A stretch of 12,392 nucleotides of DNA, from the NCBI GenBank assembly GCA_037147375.1, contig JBAWVI010000022.1, positions 1 to 12,392 on the forward strand. Reading direction: 5' to 3'. The notes beneath the pieces are model-generated. The model saw only the letters and a list, made by a program, of their open reading frames with translations, did not search any database and was not told the origin of the DNA. The position numbers and the translations under genes are program-made. Position 1 is the first letter of the stretch; every line of letters begins with the position of its first letter. Below are positions 1-12,392 of this stretch, in pieces. The stretch comes from an archaeon. Its GTDB lineage: Archaea > Iainarchaeota > Iainarchaeia > Iainarchaeales > CSSED10-239.

Positions 1-1304
1 CTAATGGTGTATATAAACTTACACCAATAAATTTACCAACAGATGTAATTAAAGTGCAATATCTTCTTGATGAAACATCTGAGCTTTGTTTAAAAGATAA
101 AAATTCAACAAATTTTTCATGCGATTTTAATAGCTTTGATTTTGAAGATGGAAATCACCTAATTTCTGCACTTGCTTATGATAAGGCATTGAATGTAGGA
201 ACAAAAAAAATTTCAGTAGCTGTTGAAAATGTTAATGAGGTTATGGTAGAAAGAGAAGAATTATTAGAATCAATTGAATTTAATTTAGATTTAATTAATT
301 CAGAATTAAATATTTATGAAGCATTACTTATTACAATAAATTCAGATGTTAATATTAAATTAAACACTGTGTATGAAAAAATAACTGCAGCACAGACATT
401 AGTTGGAGTTAATGAAGTTTCAGCAAATGAATTATATAATCAAGCAAATAATATTTTAATTGAAGTGAAAGATGTGCTCCCAAAGCAATCAACAATTAAG
501 CTTAAAACTATTTCAAGTAAATATGATTCAAATTCATCAATTGATGTGACTTTATCAACTAATGATGCAAACACAATAACTAATACAACTAAGTTATATG
601 AAACAGCAGCAATAACAGTTGATCGTAATTTTTTGATTATGGATGTAAGTTCTCAAAAATATTATTCAGTTTCACTTGAATTTAAAAATTCATCCGCAAA
701 TCCAATAACAATTACATTTATTGAAGAAATTCCAAAAGAATTTGCAAGCGATATTAGAGATTTAATATTTGCAGATAAAGTTGAAGTTTTAGTGACTGAT
801 CCAGTAATTAAACACACAATTACTATACCTGCAAAGGGATCAACCATTGTAAGATATAATAAAAAAGATCCAATTACTGAATTAGATGTAATAACAAAAT
901 TCGAGTTAATTAATTTTAAATCTCCTGTAATTTTATCTGGAGAAGTTGCTTCTAATAAATTAATAATTGTTTCATCTACTATTAAACAAAAATTGTTTAC
1001 TTATATTGGTATTTTCGTAATTTCATTACTTCTTTTATTAATAATTACATGGCTTGTTGTTTCTGCAAATAAGAAAAAACCTGAACTTGGTAAACCAACT
1101 GCAAAAGATGAAATATATAATACTCTTGGAAAAGGAGATTTTGAAAAACTATCAAAGCTTAAAGATAATCCATCTACTAATAATAAGATTAATGAAGGAA
1201 TGGGTAATCCTACTGCAAGTAAAGTTGCTGTTGATGATAAATTTCAAAGTAATTATGATTTTATATTAGATGCCGTAAAACGATCAAACAGAGATAAGAA
1301 ATGA
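1..1304 (+). CDS. Cell-surface/envelope protein, C-terminal part (5' end lies outside the window): Ig-like domain remnant, long extracellular region, single C-terminal TM anchor, basic cytoplasmic tail
   Basis: The frame is open from nt 3 (NGVYKLTPINLPTDVIK...) with no stop before the track's GTG at 54, so the ORF is cut by the window edge. ISALAYDKALNVG resembles the A-x-D-x-A-G-N signature of Ig-like surface domains. The hydrophobic helix FTYIGIFVISLLLLLIITWLVVSA is followed by NKKKPELGK (positive-inside) and a tail of about 95 aa. Confidence 0.6.
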   Translation, partial: NGVYKLTPINLPTDVIKVQYLLDETSELCLKDKNSTNFSCDFNSFDFEDGNHLISALAYDKALNVGTKKISVAVENVNEVMVEREELLESIEFNLDLINSELNIYEALLITINSDVNIKLNTVYEKITAAQTLVGVNEVSANELYNQANNILIEVKDVLPKQSTIKLKTISSKYDSNSSIDVTLSTNDANTITNTTKLYETAAITVDRNFLIMDVSSQKYYSVSLEFKNSSANPITITFIEEIPKEFASDIRDLIFADKVEVLVTDPVIKHTITIPAKGSTIVRYNKKDPITELDVITKFELINFKSPVILSGEVASNKLIIVSSTIKQKLFTYIGIFVISLLLLLIITWLVVSANKKKPELGKPTAKDEIYNTLGKGDFEKLSKLKDNPSTNNKINEGMGNPTASKVAVDDKFQSNYDFILDAVKRSNRDKK

Positions 1305-2491
1305 TAGAAGGCATAGATAAAAGGATAGTAATTGCTGGTGGTGGGCCAATAGGGCTTTACACTGCATACTTAATTAAGAAGCTTAATCCAAATATACTTG
1401 TTATTGTGCTTGAAGAGCATGAAGAAGTAGGAATTCCTACTTGTTGTTCAGGACTTATTTCTTTATCTGGATTTAATAAGACTAAACTTAAAGATTATAT
1501 AAATATCAATGATTATGTTATAAATAAAGTAAGAGGTGCTGATATATTTGGACCTCATGCAGTTATTTTGAAAGTAGAATCTAGAGAGTATAAAGCAATT
1601 GTTATTGATAGAGAAAAATTTGATAAGAAAATAAGAGATCTTGCATTATCTTTAGATGTTGATATTCAATATAATCAAAAATTAATTTCTGTTGAAGAGG
1701 ATAATATTAAGGTTAAAGATTTAAAAACAGGAATGATTTCTGATTTAAGATTTGATTTTTTAGTTGGAGCTGATGGTCCAAATTCAATTGTTAGAGATAG
1801 TATATTAACTACAAAACCAGAAACTGAATTTATACACACTTATCAGGTTATGGTTGAAGGTGAATTTGGAACTGAAGGGGTTTCTGTTTATCTTGGAGAT
1901 TTTGCAAAAGGTATGTTTGGGTGGGTTATTCCTGAATCACCATATAGAGCAAAGATTGGAGTTGGAACTAGTATTGGAACTAGAAATCCAAAAGAGCAGT
2001 TTGATAAATTTTTAGAAAGAAGTAAAATTAAGTTTGATAATGTTCTTTCAACAACTTCTGGAATTATTCCTGTTTCAAAACCACTTGAAACATATGCGCG
2101 TCACAATCGTTTGATTGTTGGAGATGCTGCTTGTTTTGTTAAAGCAACAACTGGTGGAGGAATAAACTTTGGTCTTCTTTCAGCAGAGGCAGCTGCAAAA
2201 GCAGTTAATGAAAGAATAAAAGAGTTTAAGGATCTTGAAAGCAATTACAAGCATCTTCTTTCAAGATATACAAGTGAACTTAAAACACATTATAAGATTA
2301 GAAAGTATATGGATTCCAAGAATAATATTGAACTTGAGAATCTTTTAATTAAGCTAAAAAAAATTGGTATTGAGAAATTCCTTGAACAAAGAGGGGATAT
2401 GGATTTTCCAAGTTATTTTATGCCAAGATTATTAACAAACCCTGGTTTCATTACTCTTGCTCCTGAAATAATAAAGTTTCTAAGAAGTTAA
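1301..2491 (+). CDS. FAD-dependent geranylgeranyl reductase family protein (digeranylgeranylglycerophospholipid reductase-like)
   Basis: N-terminal Rossmann dinucleotide motif IVIAGGGPIGLYTAY, then VGADGPNSIVR, then VGDAACFVKATTGGGI, in the order typical of archaeal GGR flavoproteins. The ATG at 1301 overlaps the upstream TGA (ATGA). Confidence 0.85.
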   Translation: MIEGIDKRIVIAGGGPIGLYTAYLIKKLNPNILVIVLEEHEEVGIPTCCSGLISLSGFNKTKLKDYININDYVINKVRGADIFGPHAVILKVESREYKAIVIDREKFDKKIRDLALSLDVDIQYNQKLISVEEDNIKVKDLKTGMISDLRFDFLVGADGPNSIVRDSILTTKPETEFIHTYQVMVEGEFGTEGVSVYLGDFAKGMFGWVIPESPYRAKIGVGTSIGTRNPKEQFDKFLERSKIKFDNVLSTTSGIIPVSKPLETYARHNRLIVGDAACFVKATTGGGINFGLLSAEAAAKAVNERIKEFKDLESNYKHLLSRYTSELKTHYKIRKYMDSKNNIELENLLIKLKKIGIEKFLEQRGDMDFPSYFMPRLLTNPGFITLAPEIIKFLRS

Positions 2492-2558
2492 TTAATTTTA
2501 ATTTTTCATAATTAATATATTTCCTTTAAAATTAGTGTTTTTAAGCTTTTTCTATTAG

Positions 2559-2566
2559 TATATATA
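2559..2566 (+). promoter_or_regulatory. Candidate TATA box for the Alba gene
   Basis: TATATATA lies about 55 nt upstream of the ATG in a 129-bp intergenic region. It would give a leader of roughly 30 nt carrying the SD motif. AT-rich background makes this weak evidence. Confidence 0.3.
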
Positions 2567-2606
2567 CTTATTAATTATACTAGGACTAGCAACAACTAAA
2601 ACAACT

Positions 2607-2613
2607 GAGGGGG
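2607..2613 (+). promoter_or_regulatory. Shine-Dalgarno-like ribosome-binding site for Alba
   Basis: GAGGGGG sits 7 nt upstream of the ATG at 2621. The same spacing recurs at GGAGTGA 7239-7245 before the ATG at 7253 and at GGAG 7928-7931 before the ATG at 7939. Confidence 0.55.
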
Positions 2614-2620
2614 AAATAAT

Positions 2621-2899
2621 ATGGACACAATGGAAAACAATATTATTTACATAGGTAAAAAAAATACAATGTCCTATGTTTTAGCTGTTATCACACAGTT
2701 TAATCAAGGTGCAGAATCAGTTATTATCAAAGCTAGAGGAAAAACAATTTCAAAGGCTGTTGATGTTGCAGAAATAGTTAAAAATAAGTTTGTAAATACT
2801 TTGAAAATAAAAAATATAGAAATTTCAACAGAAGAAATTATTACTGAAAACAATACACCTATGAAAGTATCTGCAATAGAAATAACTTTACTTAAGTAG
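2621..2899 (+). CDS. albA: Alba (Sac10b family) DNA/RNA-binding chromatin protein
   Basis: The 92-aa product carries NIIYIGKKNTMSYVLAVITQFNQGAESVIIKARGKTISKAVDVAEIVKNKF, which follows the conserved Alba core (IGKKPVMNYVLA...ARG.AIS.AVDVAEI). A strong SD lies upstream. Confidence 0.93.
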   Translation: MDTMENNIIYIGKKNTMSYVLAVITQFNQGAESVIIKARGKTISKAVDVAEIVKNKFVNTLKIKNIEISTEEIITENNTPMKVSAIEITLLK

Positions 2900-2929
2900 T
2901 TTTTATAAAAAAAAAGGGAGTGAAAATAT

Positions 2930-3124
2930 ATAGTTAGAAATACAATTGATTGGGTTGCAATAATTCTTTTGATTATTGGTGGTCTAAATTGGGGTCTTGT
3001 TGGGATTTTTAATTTCGATTTAGTTAAATTTTTATTCTCATCAATATCAATACTTATAAATATAATTTATATTCTTGTAGGTATTGCTGCAGTATATGGA
3101 ATAATTAGAATAAAGAATATATAA
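2930..3124 (+). CDS. DUF378-family small membrane protein (not in the supplied ORF track; start codon uncertain)
   Basis: The frame is open from 2924 (after TGA 2921-2923) to TAA 3122-3124. It encodes ..VRNTIDWVAIILLIIGGLNWGLVGIFNFDLVKFLFSSISILINIIYILVGIAAVYGIIRIKNI. The IIGGLNWGLVG...FDLV...YILVG.AA.Y pattern is the DUF378 (YuzA-like) signature with two TM helices. GGGAGTGA at 2916-2923 is an SD-like motif. There is no in-frame ATG or GTG, so the best-placed candidate is ATA at 2930. Confidence 0.7.
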   Translation: MVRNTIDWVAIILLIIGGLNWGLVGIFNFDLVKFLFSSISILINIIYILVGIAAVYGIIRIKNI

Positions 3125-3134
3125 TTATATATTC

Positions 3135-3149
3135 TTTTTTTTTATTTTT
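3135..3149 (+). terminator. Oligo-T tract (T9 A T5) after the DUF378 gene, in the convergent gap
   Basis: tttttttttattttt lies directly after the stop at 3124. Archaeal RNA polymerase terminates at oligo-T runs. Confidence 0.35.
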
Positions 3150-4611
3150 AATTTACAACTAACTTAGGTATTGGAAGATTTAATTTTGTAAAGTATGTAT
3201 TTACATCTAAAACAAAGTTCTTGTTTGTTACAAGTATATTTTCTTTTTCAAGCTCTATAAATCTTGGAGAGGTACGCTCTGGTGGGCAAGATCTAATTAT
3301 CATCTCTTGTTTGATTGCTTTAATTGCATTTGCAACTTCGGGTGTGTAAAATTTAGTATTTGTGTGTGCCATAAATCTAGGTATTTCAGATAATAAATCA
3401 GAAAGAAGAGAATATTCTGTCATATACAGAGTGTATGCAAAATTATTATCAAGCTCGCTTGATACTTTATTTGAATAATTAAGATAATTACTAATTGAAA
3501 TTGATTTTTCTATGATTTTTAATCTATTAATAAGTTTTGATATTATTTCAGAGATAAATGATTCGTTCTTTAAGCAATACCAATTAAGCTTATTGTTTTC
3601 ATTAGTAATTGTTACGTCTCCAGTCTCTGATAATCTAATAGCATCAGATAAGGGAATTTGTTGTTTTTCTCCAAAAAAGAATGGACCACAAGGAAGATCT
3701 TTGATTTTATTTTCATGCATGTAAACTAATCGATTCTCCTGTCTTTCATCTTCTTTATGATATTGATATCTAAATTGTTTATTAGTTGATATAAAATAAA
3801 ATCCATTTCTTTCAAACCTTACCTCGACTAATGAGTTAGATAACGTATTTAAATCAAATATCTTGCTTGGTTTACAGCAAGAGCAATTAATTGTTTCAAA
3901 TCCAACATTATAACGCCCTTTTAAAAGAAGGTGAGGCAGTACATTTGAAAAATCAAGACAATAACTTTTTTTCAAAGATTCTTTTTTTCTAGGGATAGAT
4001 ACAATTGGTCTATTTTTCAGAACTAGTGCATTTTTATAAAAATTATTTTCAAATAAAGTATTCAATATTTGATCATTTGGAATTTCATTACTTGGGTTTA
4101 TATATAATAAGTTACTTGTAATTAGTTTTCTTGTAATAGATGTACATATTTTTGTTTTTTCTGAATCAGAAAGATTATTTGTGATCTTCTTTATCGCAAT
4201 ATGTAAATCATTTTCATCTTTTATTTTTTTAATTTTATTTTCATGGGTAATGCAAAAGGTATCATAATAACTCCAATTATTGTTTAATAGGTATTGTCTT
4301 TCAGGTTCTAAAAGAATTATATTCTTTCCTGTTGATATTGAAATAATCTTAGAACACTTTTGTAAGATATCATAATTTCTTGCATTTACTTTAATTTTAT
4401 TTAATTCAATTCCTTCTATTTTAATATCTCCTTTGAATTCAGAAAGAAGCTTTTTTCCAAGATCTTGTGGAATATCAATATAAAAATAAGGATTAAATTT
4501 TTCTTTGTATGTAAAATCAAATTTGGAAGATAAAAGATTATTTGAAAAATAGAGTACAATTCTGTTTTTTTCATTCTCATATATAGAATTTAATAAATAT
4601 AATTTTTCCAT
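3148..4611 (-). CDS. Family-B DNA-polymerase-like protein, apparently lacking the exonuclease domain and catalytically degenerate
   Basis: Collinear PolB-like blocks are present. These are an N-terminal block (YLLNSIYENEKNRIVLYF...FNPYFYIDIP), EPERQYLLNNNW, a motif-A-like block (CLDFSNVLPHLLLKGRYNVGFETINCSCC), NWYCLKNESF, and a motif-C-like block (TLYMTEYSLL in place of Y-x-DTD-S). See findings. The long uninterrupted ORF makes coding status solid; the functional call is by eye. Confidence 0.55.
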   Translation of the reverse strand: MEKLYLLNSIYENEKNRIVLYFSNNLLSSKFDFTYKEKFNPYFYIDIPQDLGKKLLSEFKGDIKIEGIELNKIKVNARNYDILQKCSKIISISTGKNIILLEPERQYLLNNNWSYYDTFCITHENKIKKIKDENDLHIAIKKITNNLSDSEKTKICTSITRKLITSNLLYINPSNEIPNDQILNTLFENNFYKNALVLKNRPIVSIPRKKESLKKSYCLDFSNVLPHLLLKGRYNVGFETINCSCCKPSKIFDLNTLSNSLVEVRFERNGFYFISTNKQFRYQYHKEDERQENRLVYMHENKIKDLPCGPFFFGEKQQIPLSDAIRLSETGDVTITNENNKLNWYCLKNESFISEIISKLINRLKIIEKSISISNYLNYSNKVSSELDNNFAYTLYMTEYSLLSDLLSEIPRFMAHTNTKFYTPEVANAIKAIKQEMIIRSCPPERTSPRFIELEKENILVTNKNFVLDVNTYFTKLNLPIPKLVVN

Positions 4612-4650
4612 AATCTATTTTCCTTATAGTTTCACAAATCCTTGATGTTT

Positions 4651-4864
4651 AGGGGAGAGAAAAAGATGATTGGTGGCAGGCCATATCATCTTAATCTTTA
4701 AAGAAAGCTTTAAATTAAAAGAGTAAAAAGAGGGAATCCCTGCCCCCTTCAAAACCCTTCCGCTTTTCCTATTTTCTATTATATATGTACTACAAGGTAG
4801 GGTATATGCTTTTGGGAGGGGGGTATCTGGCCAAGCATATTTGTTATCCAAACTATAGTTTTTT
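4651..4864 (+). ncRNA. Candidate structured RNA of unassigned class (G+C-rich island in divergent intergenic region); strand tentative
   Basis: The island contains G/C runs that are rare elsewhere in the window (GGGGAGAG, GGTGGCAGGCC, CCCTGCCCCC, GGGAGGGGGG). Perfect or near-perfect complementary segments are 4663-4673/4681-4692, 4697-4703/4708-4714, 4743-4750/4815-4822 (one G:U on + that would be A:C on -), 4754-4761/4796-4803 and 4804-4811/4833-4840. The + strand has no T run of 5 or more inside the island and ends in a palindrome plus T6. The - strand would contain two U5 tracts. Confidence 0.4.
4850..4864 (+). terminator. Palindrome AAACTATAGTTT running into T6; candidate 3' end of the + strand RNA
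   Basis: The 12-nt perfect palindrome at 4850-4861 overlaps the T run at 4859-4864. It lies immediately after the last G+C-rich helix. Confidence 0.35.
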
Positions 4865-4865
4865 A

Positions 4866-4895
4866 TATACTTTATAATATATATAATATATATCA
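4866..4895 (+). promoter_or_regulatory. TATA-rich tract, candidate promoter region for the DHH gene (and, read on the - strand at 4861-4868, a TATATAAA box pointing into the G+C-rich island)
   Basis: tatactttataatatatataatatatatc lies 37-66 nt upstream of the ATG at 4932. This is low-complexity AT sequence, so specificity is poor. Confidence 0.3.
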
Positions 4896-4931
4896 AATAA
4901 ATTTGATTAATAACAAATTAATAAGAATATT

Positions 4932-5813
4932 ATGATTTATATAACTGGCCACATATATCCTACTACTGATTTAGATAGTATTGCTTCATCAATTCTTTTA
5001 CCTAAATTTATTAAAAAGAAATATAATTTAGAATCAAAAGCAATATATCTTGGATCAAAGAATAATGATCTATCAAAACTTATAATTAGATTAGGTTTTT
5101 CTTTTCCAAAAAAGTATACTATAGATAAAACAGATTTATTTGTACTTGTGGATCATAATTTACCAACTATTTCTATACATACTAAAGGATATAAAAATAG
5201 AATATTTGGAATTGTTGATCACCATAGAGATAAACAAACAGAATATATAAAGTTCAAGATTATAAAAAAGTTAGGATCGTGTGCAACTATAATTTATAAT
5301 TTATACAAACAAAATAATATTGAAATTAATAATAAAGAAGCAAAGTTAATGTATTATGCAATAATTGTTGATACTTTAGGACTTTCTGTTGATGCAACTA
5401 GAAAACAAGATATACTAGTTATTAATGAATTAAAAGCAAAATATAAAAACCTACCATCAATAGAATTTGTATTATCAGATGTATTTAATTTTAATCTAAA
5501 TAAAAGTATTAAACAAAAATTATTAGAAGATGAAAAAATATGCACTTATAAAAAAAATAAAATAATCCTTTCAAATATTAAAACAAATGGTGAACTTATT
5601 AATTTAAAAGCCATAAAAAAATATTTGAAAAAAGGTTTTCATCTAAATGTAGTTATGATTTTAGATTTGAAAAATAAAACCACAGATATATATTATTTTG
5701 GTAAACTATCTAAATATTTCATTAATAAAAAGTATAATAAATTATTATCAAGAAAACGATATTTAGTGCCATTTATTGAGAAAAAAATAGATAAACTAGA
5801 TATTCCACAATAA
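4932..5813 (+). CDS. DHH/DHHA2-family phosphoesterase (family II inorganic pyrophosphatase / nanoRNase-like)
   Basis: The DHH motifs appear in order: GHIYPTTDLDSIAS (motif I, H..D.D..S), FVLVDHN (motif II), GIVDHHRD (motif III, DHH) and IIVDTLGL (motif IV). The C-terminal LLSRKRYLVPFI resembles the DHHA2 SRKKQ..P element. Confidence 0.75.
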   Translation: MIYITGHIYPTTDLDSIASSILLPKFIKKKYNLESKAIYLGSKNNDLSKLIIRLGFSFPKKYTIDKTDLFVLVDHNLPTISIHTKGYKNRIFGIVDHHRDKQTEYIKFKIIKKLGSCATIIYNLYKQNNIEINNKEAKLMYYAIIVDTLGLSVDATRKQDILVINELKAKYKNLPSIEFVLSDVFNFNLNKSIKQKLLEDEKICTYKKNKIILSNIKTNGELINLKAIKKYLKKGFHLNVVMILDLKNKTTDIYYFGKLSKYFINKKYNKLLSRKRYLVPFIEKKIDKLDIPQ

Positions 5814-5833
5814 TTTAAACTATTGTGTTTTTT
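5806..5833 (+). terminator. Hairpin plus T6 after the DHH gene
   Basis: CACAATA (5806-5812) and TATTGTG (5821-5827) form a 7-bp inverted repeat with an 8-nt loop. It is followed directly by TTTTTT (5828-5833). Confidence 0.45.
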
Positions 5834-5927
5834 AAAAAAATATAATTTATAATATATTTTTAAATAGTTTCAAGTATATAATATATCTAAAATATAATAT
5901 AAAATAAGGTAAAAAGATAAGAATACT

Positions 5928-7259
5928 ATGTGTTTAAAAAAAATAAGTTTATTTTTTAAGAAAAGAGCATTTTATCTATTTGTATTTATATTAATTATTT
6001 TATTTATTTTATTTGTGAGAAGTTTAAATATATATGTACTTTTAATAATATTTGGATTCTTATTTTACTTTTTAATATTATCCATAATAATTGCAAAGAA
6101 ATACCCAACAATTTCAAATTCAAAGCAATTTCCAAAGAAAGCACCAAAAGTAGCTGTAGTTACTTATGCATTTAATAATTTCCAACCAATTCTTTTAACT
6201 GTTGAAAGACTAAAACAATTAGAATATCCAATCCCATTTACTGTTTACGTTATCACGGATGGAACTTGTAAATTTCTTGATAAAGTTCCTGGTGTGAAAC
6301 AAATTATTCTTCCTAAAAAATACTTTCTTAAATCAGATATTAATCTTAAGTCGAGAATAATAAATAAGGGCTTGAAGTATATAAAAGAAGAAAATGTGTT
6401 TCAAGTAGATGGGGACACTATTCCAAATAAGGATGTTTTAATGAAACTAACAGGAACACTTAGGGATAATGTTGTTATGGCTATTGGTTCAGTTGGAGTA
6501 ACAAACACAAATAATTTTATTGAAAAAGTACAAGTTGTGGAATATAATTTTGGATTTGGATTTCCAAGAATGGTTATGACTGCAATGAATTCTTTAGATA
6601 TTGGAACTGGTGCATTATGTCTATATAAGAAAAAAATATTTGATGAAGTGGGAGGATATGATGTAAATAATATTACAGAAGATAAGGAAATTGTATATAA
6701 ATTCATTGAACATGGATATAGAGCTGAATTTGTTGTTGATGCTAAAGCAAAAACAATAGTTCCTAGTACTATAAAAGGTTTTTATATTCAAAGAGTTAGA
6801 TGGTTTAGAGGAGGATATGATGTAACCAATAAATATGCACATTTTTTGTTTAAGAAAAATCTTGGGTTCTTTTCATTCTTCTTTATATATACTACAGCAG
6901 CCATGATTTTAGGTATGTTATTTGTTTCAAAAACAATTTATGATTTCGTTAGTAATTTTATAATAAATGGATATTATTATATTTCTAATTTTATAAACTA
7001 TGGTTTTTCATTTACTGATTTATTAAATATCAAAATTTCATTTGTACCATTTATGAATTCATTATTATTATTAGCTTTAATTTCAATTACTGTTGCACTT
7101 TATTTTATTATTATTTCATTTAAATATAATGATTTTAAATTAGAAAGAAAATATATAATTCCATTATTCTATATGATTTTCGTACATGGTTTTATATTAC
7201 TTTTGATAAGTATTATTAGTATAATCTATGGTGTATTCGGAGTGAAATATAAATGGTAA
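5928..7259 (+). CDS. Membrane-embedded processive family-2 glycosyltransferase (cellulose/chitin/PNAG-synthase-like)
   Basis: N-terminal TM helices are followed by a GT-A core with VYVITDG, QVDGDT (DxD), GTGALCLYKK, ITEDKE (TED) and QRVRWFRG (Q-x-x-R-W). Several C-terminal TM helices follow. Confidence 0.85.
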   Translation: MCLKKISLFFKKRAFYLFVFILIILFILFVRSLNIYVLLIIFGFLFYFLILSIIIAKKYPTISNSKQFPKKAPKVAVVTYAFNNFQPILLTVERLKQLEYPIPFTVYVITDGTCKFLDKVPGVKQIILPKKYFLKSDINLKSRIINKGLKYIKEENVFQVDGDTIPNKDVLMKLTGTLRDNVVMAIGSVGVTNTNNFIEKVQVVEYNFGFGFPRMVMTAMNSLDIGTGALCLYKKKIFDEVGGYDVNNITEDKEIVYKFIEHGYRAEFVVDAKAKTIVPSTIKGFYIQRVRWFRGGYDVTNKYAHFLFKKNLGFFSFFFIYTTAAMILGMLFVSKTIYDFVSNFIINGYYYISNFINYGFSFTDLLNIKISFVPFMNSLLLLALISITVALYFIIISFKYNDFKLERKYIIPLFYMIFVHGFILLLISIISIIYGVFGVKYKW

Positions 7260-7921
7260 AATATATTACTGCAAATGTTTTTCTAACTGCATTTTTGATA
7301 TTATTAATTGTATTAATGATTGCATTTTTTGGAGTTATGGCTTATGATAATTATAAAAAAAGTGGTTATGAAGAAGATATAAAGTTATTAAATCAACAAA
7401 TGGTTCTTGATGATTTATTTATGGTTTATGTTGCTGATTCAAACAATACAGCGGAGAAATGTGATATTCTTGAAAAGCAATATAATGCGCAATATAATCT
7501 TAATAGACAATTATTAAGTAGACTTAGACAAATAAATGAAAATGCATTAGTTCCGACAAGCAACTATATAAAATATATGTATGTATTAACTAATGTTAAA
7601 TTATGGATGTACCATAAAAAATTAAATATTGATTGTGATAAAAATAAAACATTAATATTATATTTTTATTCTGAAACAATTAGACAAGGAAAACTAGATA
7701 GAATAAAAGATGAACAGTTAAATAATCTATTTGAAGACACATTAAATAATTTATCAGATAGATGTAATAATGTAAATGTATTTGTTTTACCTTACAATAA
7801 AGAAATAATTATTTTAAATCAAATAATTTCAGATTATAATGTAAATAATTATCCTGCAATTGTTATTGATAAAAATGTATATTATAATGTATCACCTCTA
7901 AAAGATTTTAATTGCGAGTAA
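7253..7921 (+). CDS. Hypothetical membrane-anchored extracytoplasmic protein with 4 Cys; possible thioredoxin-like fold without CxxC
   Basis: The ATG at 7253 overlaps the GT2 stop by 7 nt and is preceded by GGAGTGA at a 7-nt spacing. The N-terminal TM helix is VFLTAFLILLIVLMIAFFGVMA. The rest has no family I can name with confidence. Confidence 0.6.
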   Translation: MVKYITANVFLTAFLILLIVLMIAFFGVMAYDNYKKSGYEEDIKLLNQQMVLDDLFMVYVADSNNTAEKCDILEKQYNAQYNLNRQLLSRLRQINENALVPTSNYIKYMYVLTNVKLWMYHKKLNIDCDKNKTLILYFYSETIRQGKLDRIKDEQLNNLFEDTLNNLSDRCNNVNVFVLPYNKEIIILNQIISDYNVNNYPAIVIDKNVYYNVSPLKDFNCE

Positions 7922-7938
7922 TATAATGGAGAATAATT

Positions 7939-8709
7939 ATGGCAACACAAGCGACCCACATACACTTTGTTAAGGAAGAATACTATAAACATCCAAATCT
8001 TTTCGCGAAAGTGGATTTACCTAACGCCTATTTTGGATCTATCCTAGCTGATGTGTATTATGTTAAATTATATGGTAGAAAGAAAGCTAATTTTGGTGTT
8101 GCTCTGCATACAAAAGATTTTGGATTATATTTAGCAAAAAAATTATTTGCTGAAGCTCACAATAATAAAGAAAGATCTTTTGCAATCGGTTTTGTATCTC
8201 ATTTCATACTTGATAAATATATTCATGGTTATTTAATGGAAGTTGGTATGTTTAGTAGGGTTGAACATATGGCTATTGAGTTTTTTTTAGAAGCAGAAGT
8301 TGCTCGTGAAAGAAACAATATGAAAATAAGACGCTATCCAAAAGCTTTATTTAAAAGAACTTTAAAAAGAGATTACCCACACGTTTATAAAATATACAAA
8401 GACGAATTACATGTTTATTTTCCAAAGCTTATAATGTATAAATTTGCAAATGATGTTATATTTAGATACATGTTAACAAGTAAATATCTTCATAGTCATC
8501 CACAAAAGAATATATTCCTTGATTTATTTTTGAGGATCTGCTATTATTTACCACTAAAAGCATATGATTACAGAATAAATACATTAATTTATCCAAGTCA
8601 TCATTTAAAGGAAAAATATCTTGGGGAAATGAAAAAAAGATATCATCTTGCTCAAATTGAATTCCATGAGTTCATGAAAGATTTACCAAAATCAAATCCA
8701 ATCTTTTAG
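7939..8709 (+). CDS. Putative metal-dependent hydrolase, zinc-dependent phospholipase C-like family
   Basis: N-terminal ATHIHF, then GSILADVYY, then GFVSHFILDKYIHGY. These match the H...(P)D...H..D..H ligand pattern of the short 'zinc dependent phospholipase C family' proteins. A GGAG SD lies 7 nt upstream. Confidence 0.5.
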   Translation: MATQATHIHFVKEEYYKHPNLFAKVDLPNAYFGSILADVYYVKLYGRKKANFGVALHTKDFGLYLAKKLFAEAHNNKERSFAIGFVSHFILDKYIHGYLMEVGMFSRVEHMAIEFFLEAEVARERNNMKIRRYPKALFKRTLKRDYPHVYKIYKDELHVYFPKLIMYKFANDVIFRYMLTSKYLHSHPQKNIFLDLFLRICYYLPLKAYDYRINTLIYPSHHLKEKYLGEMKKRYHLAQIEFHEFMKDLPKSNPIF

Positions 8710-8747
8710 ATTGATACTATTTTTGTTAATTAATATAGTTTTTTAAA

Positions 8748-10040
8748 TTATATTAATTTAACTTTTGGAATAATTCCAAATGAATATAATCCATTTCCAT
8801 AAAATCTTTGCTCTTTTGAGAAATAAATGTCTTTAAATGAATTTATTAGATTACCAGTAAATCTTAAATCTGTAATTGTATCCTTGAATTCACCATTAAC
8901 TATTTCTTTTCCAGCTCCAATAACTAATGAAAAGTCTCCAGTTGTGATTTTATTTGTGTGCATTCCTAAAAGAGAATAAATTAATATTCCCTTCTTGGTT
9001 CTTGAGATAATATCTTCTATACTTTCGCTTCCAGGAAGTTGAATAAGATTTGTGTGATTACAAGAAATAGTGCTTCCTACTCTAAACCCATTTCCTGTGA
9101 TTTTTTTATTATATTTTATTGCATTGTATTGATCATAAATTGGTGTGTGAAATGTGCCAGCATCAAATATTGTTTTCTTCTCAGTTCTAAATCCTTCATC
9201 ATCAATTGAACAAGAACCCATAAAATCATCAATGTGTGGTTCTTCATTGATTGTTAGATTTTCAGAGAAAACCTTCTTTCCAACAAATGAGTGAAGATAA
9301 GATTCATTTTTTTCAATAACTTCCCCAATTGTTCCTGGTATGATTAATCCAGAAAGTATATCATTAAATACATCTGGAGTGAAAATTAAAGTATATTCTC
9401 CTTTTTCTCCAACCTTTGGATTTAATAAAATATTTGCATCATGTTTTGCTTGATTAAATGTTCTTGTAATGTCTATATCTTCTGCTTTTGTAAATATATC
9501 AGAATAAGAACCACTTGATTGTTTTTTGTCTTTTGTAACTACATTTACTCCAAGATTAATCATTGATCTCTCTTCTTCCTTTTTTGTATAAGGATTAATA
9601 TAAAACTCATAATTTTCAATTTTGTTTAATCCCCCTTCATAAGAAGAAATATATTTTTCTTTTTTAAGTTCGTTCTTAATTTTTGGAATAAAGTTTGTAA
9701 AATCAATATTTCTAATTTCTTTATCGAAATTTATGTGTGTGTTTGATTTAGCATGCCCAAAATCATTAATTTTAATATCATTCTTTAATTTTGCAATTAT
9801 TTTTGCTTTATTAATTCCTTTTCTTATATTCTTTTCATTAATTTCAGTAATTGTATAAAATCCAATTTGTACATTAACTATTACTCTAATATAAAGAACT
9901 GCACTTTCAATATTTGTTCCTTTTGTAACATCAAATTTTTCAAAAGTTATGCTTACTTTCTTTCCAGAAGAATATATAAATTCAACTTTTTCTTCCTTTG
10001 AAATTTTTTCACATAAATTATATACTTCTTCTTTATTCAT
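8748..10040 (-). CDS. pmbA: PmbA/TldE-family metallopeptidase partner subunit (no HExxxH)
   Basis: The PmbA_TldD-type C-terminal region is present (GNGFRVGS..., TTGDFSLVIGAGKEIVNGEF). The protein has no HExxxH and sits directly downstream of tldD. The track's start at 10055 is a TTG. I prefer the ATG at 10040-10038, which is preceded by GGTGGA and overlaps the tldD stop (ATGAATAA). Confidence 0.85.
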   Translation of the reverse strand: MNKEEVYNLCEKISKEEKVEFIYSSGKKVSITFEKFDVTKGTNIESAVLYIRVIVNVQIGFYTITEINEKNIRKGINKAKIIAKLKNDIKINDFGHAKSNTHINFDKEIRNIDFTNFIPKIKNELKKEKYISSYEGGLNKIENYEFYINPYTKKEEERSMINLGVNVVTKDKKQSSGSYSDIFTKAEDIDITRTFNQAKHDANILLNPKVGEKGEYTLIFTPDVFNDILSGLIIPGTIGEVIEKNESYLHSFVGKKVFSENLTINEEPHIDDFMGSCSIDDEGFRTEKKTIFDAGTFHTPIYDQYNAIKYNKKITGNGFRVGSTISCNHTNLIQLPGSESIEDIISRTKKGILIYSLLGMHTNKITTGDFSLVIGAGKEIVNGEFKDTITDLRFTGNLINSFKDIYFSKEQRFYGNGLYSFGIIPKVKLI

Positions 10041-11445
10041 GATTTGTTCCACCAACTATAACATTATCTATTTTTAAAAATGGGCCACCATCTCCAACAT
10101 ATGCGGTCTGATTTGCTTTTCCACAAAAACCAGAACCTTCTAAATGTTGTATATTTCCAATCTTTGTTATATTATTTAAGTATGTTAATATATTTCCTGA
10201 GATTGATGCTTGTTTAAATGTACCAATAATCTTTCCTTTATCATACTTTATAGCTTGCTTTATACCAAACATAAAGGTTCCAATTGATGGATCAACCATT
10301 CCTCCAGCAAATCCTTTAAGATAATATCCACTAAAATCAGTTAGCATATCTTTGTGTTTATCCTTTCCAGGTAGAAAAAAAGTATTACTCATTCTTACAA
10401 TTGGCATGCTTGAAAAACTTTCGGCTCTTGCAGAACCATTTGATTTTTCATTTTCTATTGTTGCAGTTTCAATGTTTGTCATGTAATCATTAACAACTCC
10501 ATTTTTAATTAAAGTTGTTTTATTTGCTCTTATTCCTTCATCATCATAAACCATGTGACCAAATCCATTACTTGTAGGATCATCAACAATTGTGATATCT
10601 TTATTTTTAGTTAAAATCATTCCTTTTTTCTTTAAAACAGTAGCATTTACTAATTTTGCATCAGCTTCACAAGGATGACCTATAGCTTCATGAGCAAGAA
10701 GTCCAACAACTTCTGGGTCAAGCACAATATTAGCCTTAATTGCATTACATGGTTTTGAGATTAATAATTCTCCAAGAATACTTTTATTTTCAGAAAGTAG
10801 TTCATTCTTTTTTTCAAAGGTAATAGCATCAAGTCCACCTTTTTTGCAGAATCTATTTAAATTTGTTTCAATAATTTCATTCTTTTTTCCAGTCATAAAT
10901 GAATACATCATTATGTACGGTTCATCTTGATAAATATAACTCCAAGGATTTACAAAATATTTTTCAGTATAATCTTCCTTATATCTTATTTCTGATTCAA
11001 GTAGTTTATAATCTTGATTATTCTTTGTGATTATTTCATTATTTATTTTAACTAGTTCATTTACCTTGCTTTCAAGAGAAGAATCTTCAAAACTTTTGTG
11101 CTTGTATTTAATGGTTGCTTTGTTTGCAGCAAAGTTTTGCATATCTGTTTTTTTAGTTAACTTCTCTGTTGCTCTTATGCACTCATCAATAATTAATTTG
11201 TAATTATCAAGATTAGTTGTTGAACAAAAACCAAGCTTCTTATTTTTATATATTCTAATTCCAATTCCTGTAATTTCAGTATCTCCAATTGCTCTTACCT
11301 TATTATTATCAATTACAATTCCTGTTTTCTTGCTTTTTTCAAGACGTATGTCATAATAATCTAGATCTTTTCTTTCAAGATAGTTTTTTATATTTTCAAG
11401 TATAGATTCAATTTCTGTTTTTTTAAAATTAGATTTAGCTTTCAT
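10033..11445 (-). CDS. tldD: TldD-family zinc metallopeptidase
   Basis: The catalytic motif LLAHEAIGHPCEAD (HExxxH) is present. So are the C-terminal GxC and glycine-rich blocks (GSGFCGK, GGMVDPSIGTFMFG) typical of TldD. It is paired with a PmbA-like gene. Confidence 0.9.
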   Translation of the reverse strand: MKAKSNFKKTEIESILENIKNYLERKDLDYYDIRLEKSKKTGIVIDNNKVRAIGDTEITGIGIRIYKNKKLGFCSTTNLDNYKLIIDECIRATEKLTKKTDMQNFAANKATIKYKHKSFEDSSLESKVNELVKINNEIITKNNQDYKLLESEIRYKEDYTEKYFVNPWSYIYQDEPYIMMYSFMTGKKNEIIETNLNRFCKKGGLDAITFEKKNELLSENKSILGELLISKPCNAIKANIVLDPEVVGLLAHEAIGHPCEADAKLVNATVLKKKGMILTKNKDITIVDDPTSNGFGHMVYDDEGIRANKTTLIKNGVVNDYMTNIETATIENEKSNGSARAESFSSMPIVRMSNTFFLPGKDKHKDMLTDFSGYYLKGFAGGMVDPSIGTFMFGIKQAIKYDKGKIIGTFKQASISGNILTYLNNITKIGNIQHLEGSGFCGKANQTAYVGDGGPFLKIDNVIVGGTNHE

Positions 11446-11503
11446 ACAATATATATGTTAAGAAATCTTTTTAAACTAAATATACTATATATATCTTATA
11501 TTC

Positions 11504-11511
11504 TATATAAA
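11504..11511 (+). promoter_or_regulatory. Candidate TATA box for the GtrA-family gene (divergent intergenic region 11446-11540)
   Basis: TATATAAA is centred about 33 nt upstream of the ATG at 11541, implying a very short leader. AT-rich background. Confidence 0.3.
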
Positions 11512-11540
11512 TTCTAAAATTATAACAGTAAGGCAAAAAA

Positions 11541-12062
11541 ATGACACTAAAAGAACAAGAATCTAAAAAAAATAATTATAGATTCACAAAATCATTATTA
11601 ATTAAAAAAAGAACATCTTTTTTACATAAAATTTATTATAGTTTAGTTTCAATTCCACTTATTTATAAATATAAAACTAAACTTAAATATGTGTCTTTAG
11701 GGTTTTTTGGAGAAATTGTTGATTTCTTATTATTATTTATATTAACTTCTTTCTTAAATGTTTATTACCTTTTATCAACCATAATTGCATATGTTGCTGG
11801 CATGTTTGTTAATTTTAATTTACATAAAAATTATACATTTAAATATAATACAACTAATCTATGGAAAAATCTGTTTTCATTTTTTAAATATACAATGATT
11901 TCTATAACTGGATTAGTAGTTACAGTAATTTTAATGGGTGTTTTTGTTGAATTTATTGGCATGCATTATCTTCTTGCAAAATTAGTTGCTGGTATGATTG
12001 CATTTTCTATAAACTATTATGGTCATTCATATATCCTTTCTCATCAAAGATTTTTAAATTAA
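11541..12062 (+). CDS. GtrA-family membrane protein (polysaccharide/lipid-linked sugar translocation-associated)
   Basis: Four TM helices show the GtrA pattern: LKYVSLGFFGEIVDFLLLFIL..., YVAGMFVNFNLHKNYTF, and a C-terminal KLVAGMIAFSINYYGHSY. There is an extra basic N-terminal extension of about 45 aa. Confidence 0.8.
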   Translation: MTLKEQESKKNNYRFTKSLLIKKRTSFLHKIYYSLVSIPLIYKYKTKLKYVSLGFFGEIVDFLLLFILTSFLNVYYLLSTIIAYVAGMFVNFNLHKNYTFKYNTTNLWKNLFSFFKYTMISITGLVVTVILMGVFVEFIGMHYLLAKLVAGMIAFSINYYGHSYILSHQRFLN

Positions 12063-12123
12063 GTAAATAAATAACCAAACCCAATGTTTTTAATTATTTA
12101 TATATACAATATTATTGATAATT

Positions 12124-12392
12124 ATGACTGATTTATTAAAAGAAGATATTGGATATCTAGTTTTAATCTCAAAAGAGATAAACGGAAAGAAGATTGAACA
12201 TAAAGGTTATGTTGTTGATGTGTCTAAAGATGTTATAAAACTCAAACTTTTAGATAATGGATATAATATAGATGTTTCAGTTGATGGTAATACAATAATT
12301 CAAAAGTTTCCAGAAAAAATAAACCTTGGTTCAATTCCTATTATTAAGCTTAAAGAAAATAAAGATCTTCCTTCTATTACATATATTGGAAC
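12124..12392 (+). CDS. Hypothetical protein, N-terminal part (runs off the window; not in the ORF track)
   Basis: An ATG at 12124 is followed by 89 sense codons with no stop to the window end (MTDLLKEDIGYLVLISKEINGKKIEHKGYVVDVSKDVIKLKLLDNGYNIDVSVDG...PSITYIG). The composition is similar to neighbouring genes. I do not recognise a family. Confidence 0.5.
   Translation, partial: MTDLLKEDIGYLVLISKEINGKKIEHKGYVVDVSKDVIKLKLLDNGYNIDVSVDGNTIIQKFPEKINLGSIPIIKLKENKDLPSITYIG

Follow-up and report, generated by a model that had tools for sequence, protein, structure and literature searches.

Inactivated modules of the family-B DNA polymerase (PolB) are rare, and where their role is understood, as in the C-terminal half of DNA polymerase epsilon (Pol epsilon), they are central to replisome architecture. 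Known exapted or inactive PolBs include archaeal PolB2, the Pol epsilon C-terminal half, poxvirus F12 and polinton-like helicase fusions (PMC7544198, PMC2669801, PMC4304020, PMC5499653). PolB2, a conserved paralogue of PolB whose catalytic motifs are disrupted and which serves as a precedent for exapted or deviant archaeal PolBs, corresponds to the PolB family termed 'inactivated' by Rogozin et al. (2008; cited in PMC7544198), and work cited in the same source attributes damage-tolerance synthesis to a crenarchaeal member. The catalytic domain of Pol epsilon carries an extra domain, the P-domain, in its palm between motif A and the fingers, together with the CysX [4Fe-4S] cluster bound by C665, C668, C677 and C763 (PMC6582351). 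According to PMC7544198, the P-domain and CysX had been regarded as confined to Pol epsilon orthologues, and archaeal PolBs had shown no metal-binding domain. Here, we describe a domain-reduced PolB derivative, which we call mini-PolB, encoded in a 12,392-nucleotide stretch of DNA (the window; GenBank assembly GCA_037147375.1, contig JBAWVI010000022.1, positions 1 to 12,392) from an archaeon of the Iainarchaeota lineage CSSED10-239. Mini-PolB keeps the N-terminal domain, the palm core and the two-helix fingers, and carries within its palm a cysteine-framed insert that we regard, with moderate confidence, as a GINS B-domain-like module.

The homology of mini-PolB to family-B DNA polymerase is backed by four methods (Foldseek, hhalign, hmmsearch and BLAST). 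A Foldseek search of the PDB with the AlphaFold2 model (pLDDT 85.4, pTM 0.85) gave 123 matches at E<=1e-3, the top 50 of which were all PolBs at probability 1.0; they include Pol epsilon, whose chains head the list, Sso PolB1, the Tgo/KOD/9°N/Pfu enzymes and E. coli Pol II. Against a viral library, the same model matched PolBs only. A scan of GTDB turned up a canonical 761-aa PolB (L028, contig CAZHGP010000038.1) whose signature YNISFETINCECC...VCKKNRGLIS parallels the YN(I/V)GFETINC.CC...WFCKK.ESF(I/L)S of the mini-PolB family. BLASTP of the window protein (q) against this PolB (s) returned three collinear high-scoring segment pairs (HSPs), at q11-112/s11-119, q151-246/s322-435 (E 5e-7) and q346-465/s452-560 (E 0.002). 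In hhalign, an alignment of 79 family members matched 29 canonical PolBs related to L028 at 97.7% probability and E 2.3e-12, in a single collinear alignment of q1-481 on t1-579. A family HMM searched against 240 canonical PolBs (hmmsearch --max) gave full-sequence E values as low as 4e-16 (Z=1000), each match consisting of two or three collinear segments. The L028-type PolBs supplied the decisive profile; a Thermococcales-only PolB profile aligned weakly and partially to the family. The N-terminal domain, palm and fingers thus follow one another in the canonical order (Foldseek, hhalign). The structural and profile matches to PolB are significant, although Pfam DNA_pol_B and DNA_pol_B_exo1 were matched by none of the 79 members at E<=1, and neither the single protein nor a close-family profile retrieved anything from Pfam, NCBIfam or PDB sequences.

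With the L028 group, mini-PolB shares a collinear N-terminal domain, motif A segment, fingers and second palm segment, as well as the signature YN(I/V)(S/G)FETINC.CC ... (W/V)C(K)K..(S/G)(F/L)(I/L)S. The two differ in length (487 aa against ~750-850 aa in canonical archaeal PolBs), in the exonuclease domain, KxY strand, thumb and motif B and C residues that mini-PolB lacks, and in the ~100-aa insert that mini-PolB carries between its CxCC and fourth Cys. In the L028 region 3703-7323, the PolB gene itself has motifs A, B, C and KxY intact, while its Exo I DxE is replaced (LYFTTIIYSE). Its product bears a four-Cys motif (CxCC...C) after motif A, of which the first three Cys are found in about one third of its relatives and the fourth in ~60%. 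On the same strand, it is preceded by a DHH/DHHA1 (RecJ/GAN-like) gene, and the contig is labelled Nitrososphaeria yet is AT-rich. A further set of PolB-like proteins of ~581-604 aa (P0325-P0342) covers ~80% of the L028 PolB and may represent another shortened PolB lineage; the NCBIfam match of P0330 suggests that these proteins lack the N-terminal ~180 aa.

The mini-PolB open reading frame (ORF), on the minus strand with an ATG start, was confirmed as originally predicted, and its parts can be laid out as follows.

3148..4611, minus strand: complete mini-PolB gene, 487 aa plus stop codon (ORF list, homologues, clusters, dN/dS)
4222..4611, minus strand: PolB N-terminal domain, aa 1-130 (hhalign q1-118 on PolB 1-154, BLAST HSP, column frequencies)
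3967..4221, minus strand: helical linker replacing the exonuclease, and second part of the N-terminal domain, aa 131-215 (hhalign, BLAST)
3871..3966, minus strand: palm motif A remnant, aa 216-247, YCLDFSNVLPHLL...YNVGFETINCSCC, with D220, C243, C245 and C246 (hhalign, position map)
3577..3870, minus strand: ~100-aa insert, aa 248-345, putative GINS B-domain-like module (hhalign gap, dN/dS, Pfam, Foldseek)
3367..3576, minus strand: C346 and fingers, aa 346-415 (model secondary structure, BLAST HSP q346-465/s452-560, position map)
3151..3366, minus strand: second palm segment, aa 416-487 (hhalign end point, column frequencies)

The N-terminal half bears out the original prediction, which had been made by eye from the sequence. 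Its parallel between aa 5-50 and the PolB N-terminus holds (FNPYFY against YKPYFY/FRPYIY in hhalign and BLAST), and P41 of this FxPYFY block is invariant. The parallel drawn for aa 101-113 falls in a highly conserved block (EPERQFL...WSYFD.F, aa 102-119), where EPERQYLL aligns with the (A/W)xxF(I/L)(L/I)D block ahead of the exonuclease domain. The 3'-5' exonuclease domain (~170 residues) is absent, as had been proposed; PolB ~155-320 has no counterpart in hhalign, and a short helical linker (aa ~113-160) is found instead. The second part of the N-terminal domain (aa ~160-215) follows with the pattern LSN.L..P....I.N.LFEN.FF, and q151-215 aligns to PolB 322-400. The match of aa 217-246 to motif A also stands, including the downstream 'N.S.ET.N..C' segment, and hhalign aligns this segment with the L028 PolB at 92% probability and E 6e-7. 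The nucleotide ranges originally quoted agree with the residue numbers, both for aa 217-246 and for aa 396-401. D220 occupies the position of the catalytic Asp of motif A (D411), and its retention, claimed for the window, is real there but not general, since only 63 of the 79 members have D and 10 have N. The Ser, Tyr (steric gate) and Pro positions of the motif A SLYPS are not conserved in the family.

Towards the C-terminus, several assignments need to be moved. The fingers are modelled as two long helices (aa 352-377 and 391-415). The motif B position lies at aa 404-412 (S..LS.IPR), and the signature had been called unrecognisable: K498, N502, Y505 and G506 map to S404, S408, P411 and R412, and these columns are unconserved except for P411 (P in 55/79). 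NWYCLKNESF (aa 343-352) had been paired with RWYCKECAES (Pfu 501-510), which is a false friend; the true partner of NWYC is HKFCKDIPGF (Pfu 440-449; ANVCKKNRGL in the L028 PolB), that is, the Cys and the start of finger helix 1. Likewise, TLYMTEYSLL (aa 393-402) had been taken for motif C but sits inside finger helix 2, just N-terminal of the motif B position, and T398, E399 and Y400 are unconserved across the wider family. The loss of motif C is nevertheless real, with its correct site at aa 450-461, where RFIELEKENILV of mini-PolB lies against KVIYIDTDGIQF. D550 and D552 map to E455 and E457, so that the window protein has E455-K456-E457 at D-T-D; family-wide, both columns are unconserved (column 455: N14 S13 D9; column 457: S19 N11 E8). 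The second palm segment comprises a palm helix (424-440), this degenerate hairpin, one further helix and strand, and the C-terminal ..NLPIPKL. Mini-PolB ends at the equivalent of PolB residue ~585 (the hhalign match ends at 579), ahead of KKKY at 593-596 and the thumb after it, and the KxY strand and the entire thumb are therefore absent (hhalign, position map). Having lost the KxY strand, the thumb and the catalytic residues of motifs B and C, mini-PolB is predicted to be unable to polymerise DNA.

The intactness of the gene was addressed through its relatives. A first protein search found 35 full-length homologues (481-535 aa, 43-93% identity to the window protein), all unannotated and without any Pfam domain. 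An exhaustive HMMER search with the homologue profile extended the family to ~159 representative clusters at 50% identity, whose full-length members are nearly all 480-530 aa long and in no case reach canonical PolB length. Labelled members and GTDB loci belong to Iainarchaeota/Diapherotrites (DPANN) only, and the named hosts include Ca. Forterrea multitransposorum (complete genome, CP045477.1), Ca. Iainarchaeum and 'Ca. ainarchaeum'. The family is under strong purifying selection: dN/dS is 0.062 at dS 0.53 against a 93%-identical orthologue, and 0.10 against a 79% orthologue. The overall picture of the original prediction, a miniaturised, exonuclease-less PolB homologue without a functional active site that is maintained as an intact and conserved gene, is thus supported by Foldseek, hhalign and dN/dS. 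It had missed the absence of the KxY strand and thumb, the constrained ~100-aa insert and the likeness of that insert to the GINS B-domain. A viral or mobile-element origin was also considered and rejected, since IMG/VR viral contigs held no relatives of mini-PolB and neither PHROGs nor PADLOC gave a match.

The insert (aa 248-345) has no counterpart in the 29 canonical PolBs aligned by hhalign, and shows the strongest conservation and constraint in the protein (dN/dS 0.016). R294, G309, P310 and D323 are invariant, and N255, H285, F311 and W344 nearly so. Modelled in isolation (pLDDT 88.6, pTM 0.78), it gave weak Foldseek matches (E at least 0.26), about half of the top 50 of which are GINS subunits. 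They include Psf2 (8ouw_B, probability 0.97, rmsd 2.6 Å), 5ghr_D (TMt 0.69), chains of the human GINS complex, the S. solfataricus GINS tetramer and T. kodakarensis Gins51. We take 5ghr_D to be the isolated Gins51 B-domain bound to GAN, and the human chains, from their presumed order, to be Sld5/Psf1. In Pfam scans of the excised insert from 78 members, PSF2_N was found in 12 (best E 3.6e-4) and Gins51_C in 4, while any other family was matched in at most one member; the PSF2_N/Gins51_C signal is also present on the full-length proteins. By hhalign, the core P.GPF...IPL.DA..L....I (aa 307-338) aligns with residues 32-62 of human PSF2 (E 3.5e-4, probability 37%; sequence checked against 2e9x_B), and a PDB profile search found the same core motif in Drosophila PSF2 (E 1.2). 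The insert thus appears to resemble the GINS B-domain (Psf2 N-terminal PF25005; Gins51 C-terminal PF22090) in its GPF....(I/V)PL..A..L....(I/L) core and overall small fold, with every similarity score below threshold. It differs from GINS subunits in the absence of an A-domain (no Pfam Sld5/GINS A-domain match in any family member), in two extra helices at aa 278-301 and in being embedded in a polymerase palm.

Cysteines frame this insert in the sequence. C243, C246 and the fourth Cys, C346, are invariant in the family, and a few members have D or G in place of C245. C243-x-C245-C246 lie 23-26 aa after D220, and C346 lies 6 aa before finger helix 1, with ~100 aa between them. This is the arrangement of Pol epsilon, in which an extra palm domain between motif A and the fingers is likewise framed by four Cys: yeast Pol2 (sequence verified) has D640, C665, C668 and C677, a P-domain segment of ~85 aa, and C763 ~6 residues before the fingers, so that D220/C243, C246...C346 of mini-PolB correspond in spacing to D640/C665, C668...C763 of Pol2. 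Judging by these sequence positions, C243-x-x-C246 and C346, joined by C245 in most members, probably form a structural metal site at the base of the insert. C246 and C346 also align with the C429/C443 pair of Pfu, which forms a disulfide in Thermococcales enzymes (KOD/Tgo structures); by this analogy, the cysteines would meet at the base of the insert. Pol epsilon differs in being an active polymerase, and its P-domain has no detectable sequence or fold likeness to the insert. An identification of the insert as a P-domain was accordingly rejected; hhalign against Pol2 640-791 aligned the motif A tail alone (E 0.09), no Pol epsilon chain appeared in the Foldseek top 50 of the isolated insert, and what is shared is the site and the Cys framing only.

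The neighbourhood of the gene varies with the distance from the window. In the window clade (39-93% identity), mini-PolB is convergent with an adjacent Alba gene in ~22 loci. This gene is listed for context only.

2621..2899, plus strand: Alba gene, conserved convergent neighbour of mini-PolB (Pfam Alba 3.8e-22)

In the closest relatives, the remaining neighbours encode a DUF378 protein and a DHH protein. The DHH gene was tried as a GAN/Cdc45-like partner and dismissed, being a family-II Mn-pyrophosphatase homologue that is adjacent in the closest relatives alone. Five divergent loci, with 26-31% identity to the window protein and 28-40% among themselves, have another arrangement: in all five, NurA-(HAD)-HerA-miniPolB lie on one strand with Rad50 convergent downstream (loci L022-L027, e.g. 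L023 2642-10102). HerA is directly upstream in L022, L023 and L026, 60-75 nt from the mini-PolB start, and other ORFs lie between the two genes in L024 and L027. Pfam and NCBIfam name the neighbours as double-strand-break (DSB)-repair HerA, NurA and Rad50. Several loci of the window clade also have a HerA-like gene and NurA within 3-7 kb of mini-PolB, the former at 3-6 kb and NurA at about 6 kb. Archaeal mre11 usually adjoins rad50; no Mre11-type phosphoesterase was detected within ~6 kb of these Rad50 genes, either by tblastn with an unverified Pfu Mre11 sequence as query, or by Pfam on the flanking ORFs.

Two further features of these loci were noted. Enlarged HerA-family genes, encoding 834 to ~1150 aa, occur near mini-PolB in L001 (14508-17012), L024 (90-3497) and L027 (1775-5224), and the one scanned, in L001, carries an intein with a LAGLIDADG domain. 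About 1.3 kb upstream of mini-PolB, tRNA matches in L008 (4540-4702) and L009 (4606-4770) extend over 163-165 nt, although the model has 71 positions, and presumably contain introns.

We propose that mini-PolB is a non-catalytic PolB-derived adaptor with a GINS-B-like insert, most likely acting in end resection and break repair or in broken-fork repair, and we put the probability of this reading at about 60%. Partners, pathway and the binding of DNA and metal are what we infer, along the following lines: the PolB remnant (N-terminal domain, palm and fingers) would offer a platform for DNA or junction binding, the GINS-B-like module would act as a docking surface for a partner protein, the cysteines would hold a structural metal, and the whole would work with the machinery of DNA-end resection, double-strand-break repair or broken-fork repair. 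A role with repair machinery appears most likely, since in the most divergent members the gene belongs to NurA-HerA-[miniPolB] with convergent Rad50. DNA-end resection or broken-fork repair as the specific pathway is, taken by itself, a tentative assignment with slightly less than an even chance. Several points weigh against the proposal. HerA, NurA and Rad50 are not adjacent to mini-PolB in the window and its closest relatives, where Alba, DUF378 and the pyrophosphatase are found instead; Rad50 is convergent, hence there is no operon, and the repair linkage is seen in five loci. Each GINS likeness is individually weak (Foldseek E at least 0.26, hhalign 37%, PDB hmmsearch E 1.2) and covers chiefly the beta-hairpin/helix core. 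The hints also diverge, as the GINS-like module points to the replisome and the gene context to repair. In a bolder version, which we consider speculative and somewhat unlikely, mini-PolB would be an unrecognised non-catalytic subunit of HerA-NurA/Rad50 in Iainarchaeota, roughly in Mre11's usual slot, whose dead PolB reads DNA ends or primer-template junctions and whose captured GINS B-domain, clamped by Zn or Fe-S, couples resection to the replisome. If true, this subunit would be the archaeal counterpart of Pol epsilon's dead PolB half bolted onto the CMG helicase.

The GINS likeness by itself would fit a replisome scaffold, analogous to the inactive C-terminal PolB module of Pol epsilon, that docks a CMG-type helicase (MCM/GINS/RecJ-GAN) or PolD via the insert. 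That module (DUF1744, PolepsilonC) is likewise a non-catalytic PolB fold serving as a scaffold on the replicative helicase, and it binds CMG (PMC7544198); the Gins51 B-domain binds GAN and the N-terminus of PolD DP1 (PMC9023282). Pol epsilon chains lead the Foldseek list, and two family members have weak DUF1744 matches, far below threshold. The eukaryotic module is, however, much larger; it retains an exo-like region and a thumb, and shares its polypeptide with an active polymerase and a C-terminal domain that binds Zn. No replication gene is found among the conserved neighbours, the linkage being to NurA, HerA and Rad50, and the adjacent DHH gene encodes the pyrophosphatase homologue rather than GAN, in an adjacency that is not conserved. 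We judge a replisome scaffold, the main alternative, unlikely. The original prediction had left room for a polymerase with very unusual chemistry, and an active nucleotidyl-transferase could be imagined around D220 and D323 or E455/E457: D220 is kept in 80% of members, D323 is invariant, the window protein has Glu at both DTD positions, and some PolBs with a single motif C Asp are active (PMC7544198). With D220 replaced by N in 10 of 79 members, the motif C columns unconserved, the motif B K/N/Y/G, KxY strand and thumb gone, and D323 lying in the 'PL.DA' core of the GINS-like insert outside the palm active site, such an activity is very improbable. Equally improbable is a component of an anti-phage defence or mobile-element system centred on HerA and an SMC-like ATPase. 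The PADLOC models HerA, LmuB and mad do match the neighbouring HerA and Rad50-like genes; mini-PolB itself has no match in PADLOC or PHROGs and no relatives on IMG/VR contigs, NurA is present, the top NCBIfam assignments are the DSB-repair HerA and Rad50, and at every examined locus across the whole phylum the gene is single-copy amid housekeeping genes. The empty single-sequence and simple profile searches of Pfam, NCBIfam and PDB might suggest a chance resemblance to PolB or a decaying fragment. With four independent homology methods significant, the former is scarcely credible; nor is mini-PolB a pseudogene, because intact full-length homologues occur in ~159 clusters and dN/dS is 0.06.

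The comparison with PolB2, offered as a precedent by the original prediction, holds for a conserved PolB paralogue with disrupted motifs but is otherwise a loose analogy. PolB2 keeps one motif C Asp, a degenerate exo-like domain and the thumb (partly after PMC7544198, partly from general knowledge), all of which mini-PolB lacks, and has no GINS-like insert. The mini-PolB family shows how far PolB has been pared under strong selection, namely to the N-terminal domain, palm and fingers, with a GINS-type docking module suggested at the Cys-framed palm site where Pol epsilon has its P-domain and Fe-S cluster, and with a link to NurA-HerA-Rad50 clusters near which no Mre11 gene was detected. In the literature searched, we found no description of this family (an earlier mention elsewhere, e.g. 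in arCOG annotations, is possible), of an archaeal PolB without both exonuclease and thumb, of a GINS-like domain within a polymerase palm or of a PolB-like gene in a HerA-NurA-Rad50 cluster. If the adaptor model is true, mini-PolB would offer a tractable prokaryotic system for the reuse of dead polymerases as scaffolds, and may show how reduced DPANN genomes rewire repair and replication.

Other observations concern the rest of the window and single family members. One member of 535 aa (P0011) has a tandem duplication of ~53 aa just before motif A (..IKNDEILNILFENNFY.NKLVLKNKQKI.Y..; alignment A1, columns 221-273). Mini-PolB is separated from the divergent pyrophosphatase-like gene by an intergenic region (4612-4931, GC-rich core ~4640-4850) of unusual conservation: it is 95% identical to L029/L030 and 76% to L012, a locus whose coding sequence is 80% identical and whose synonymous sites differ at 59%. 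RNAalifold predicts 50 pairs in this region, 2 of them compensatory; no Rfam family and no tRNA were found in it, nhmmer matches occurred in these four loci only, and it may be a lineage-specific non-coding RNA or regulatory leader. The window as a whole is AT-rich (~25% GC). Besides Alba, its genes named by Pfam include those for a geranylgeranyl-reductase-like flavoprotein, a GT2 glycosyltransferase and a TldD/PmbA pair. This pair consists of two tandem metallopeptidase genes at 8748-11445 on the minus strand, which overlap by 23 nt (10033-10055) and are syntenic in L004/L005. Between Alba and mini-PolB, a small ORF at 2969-3124 encodes 51 aa (ORF list), corresponds to a 64-aa protein with Pfam DUF378 in L029/L030 and apparently specifies a membrane protein.

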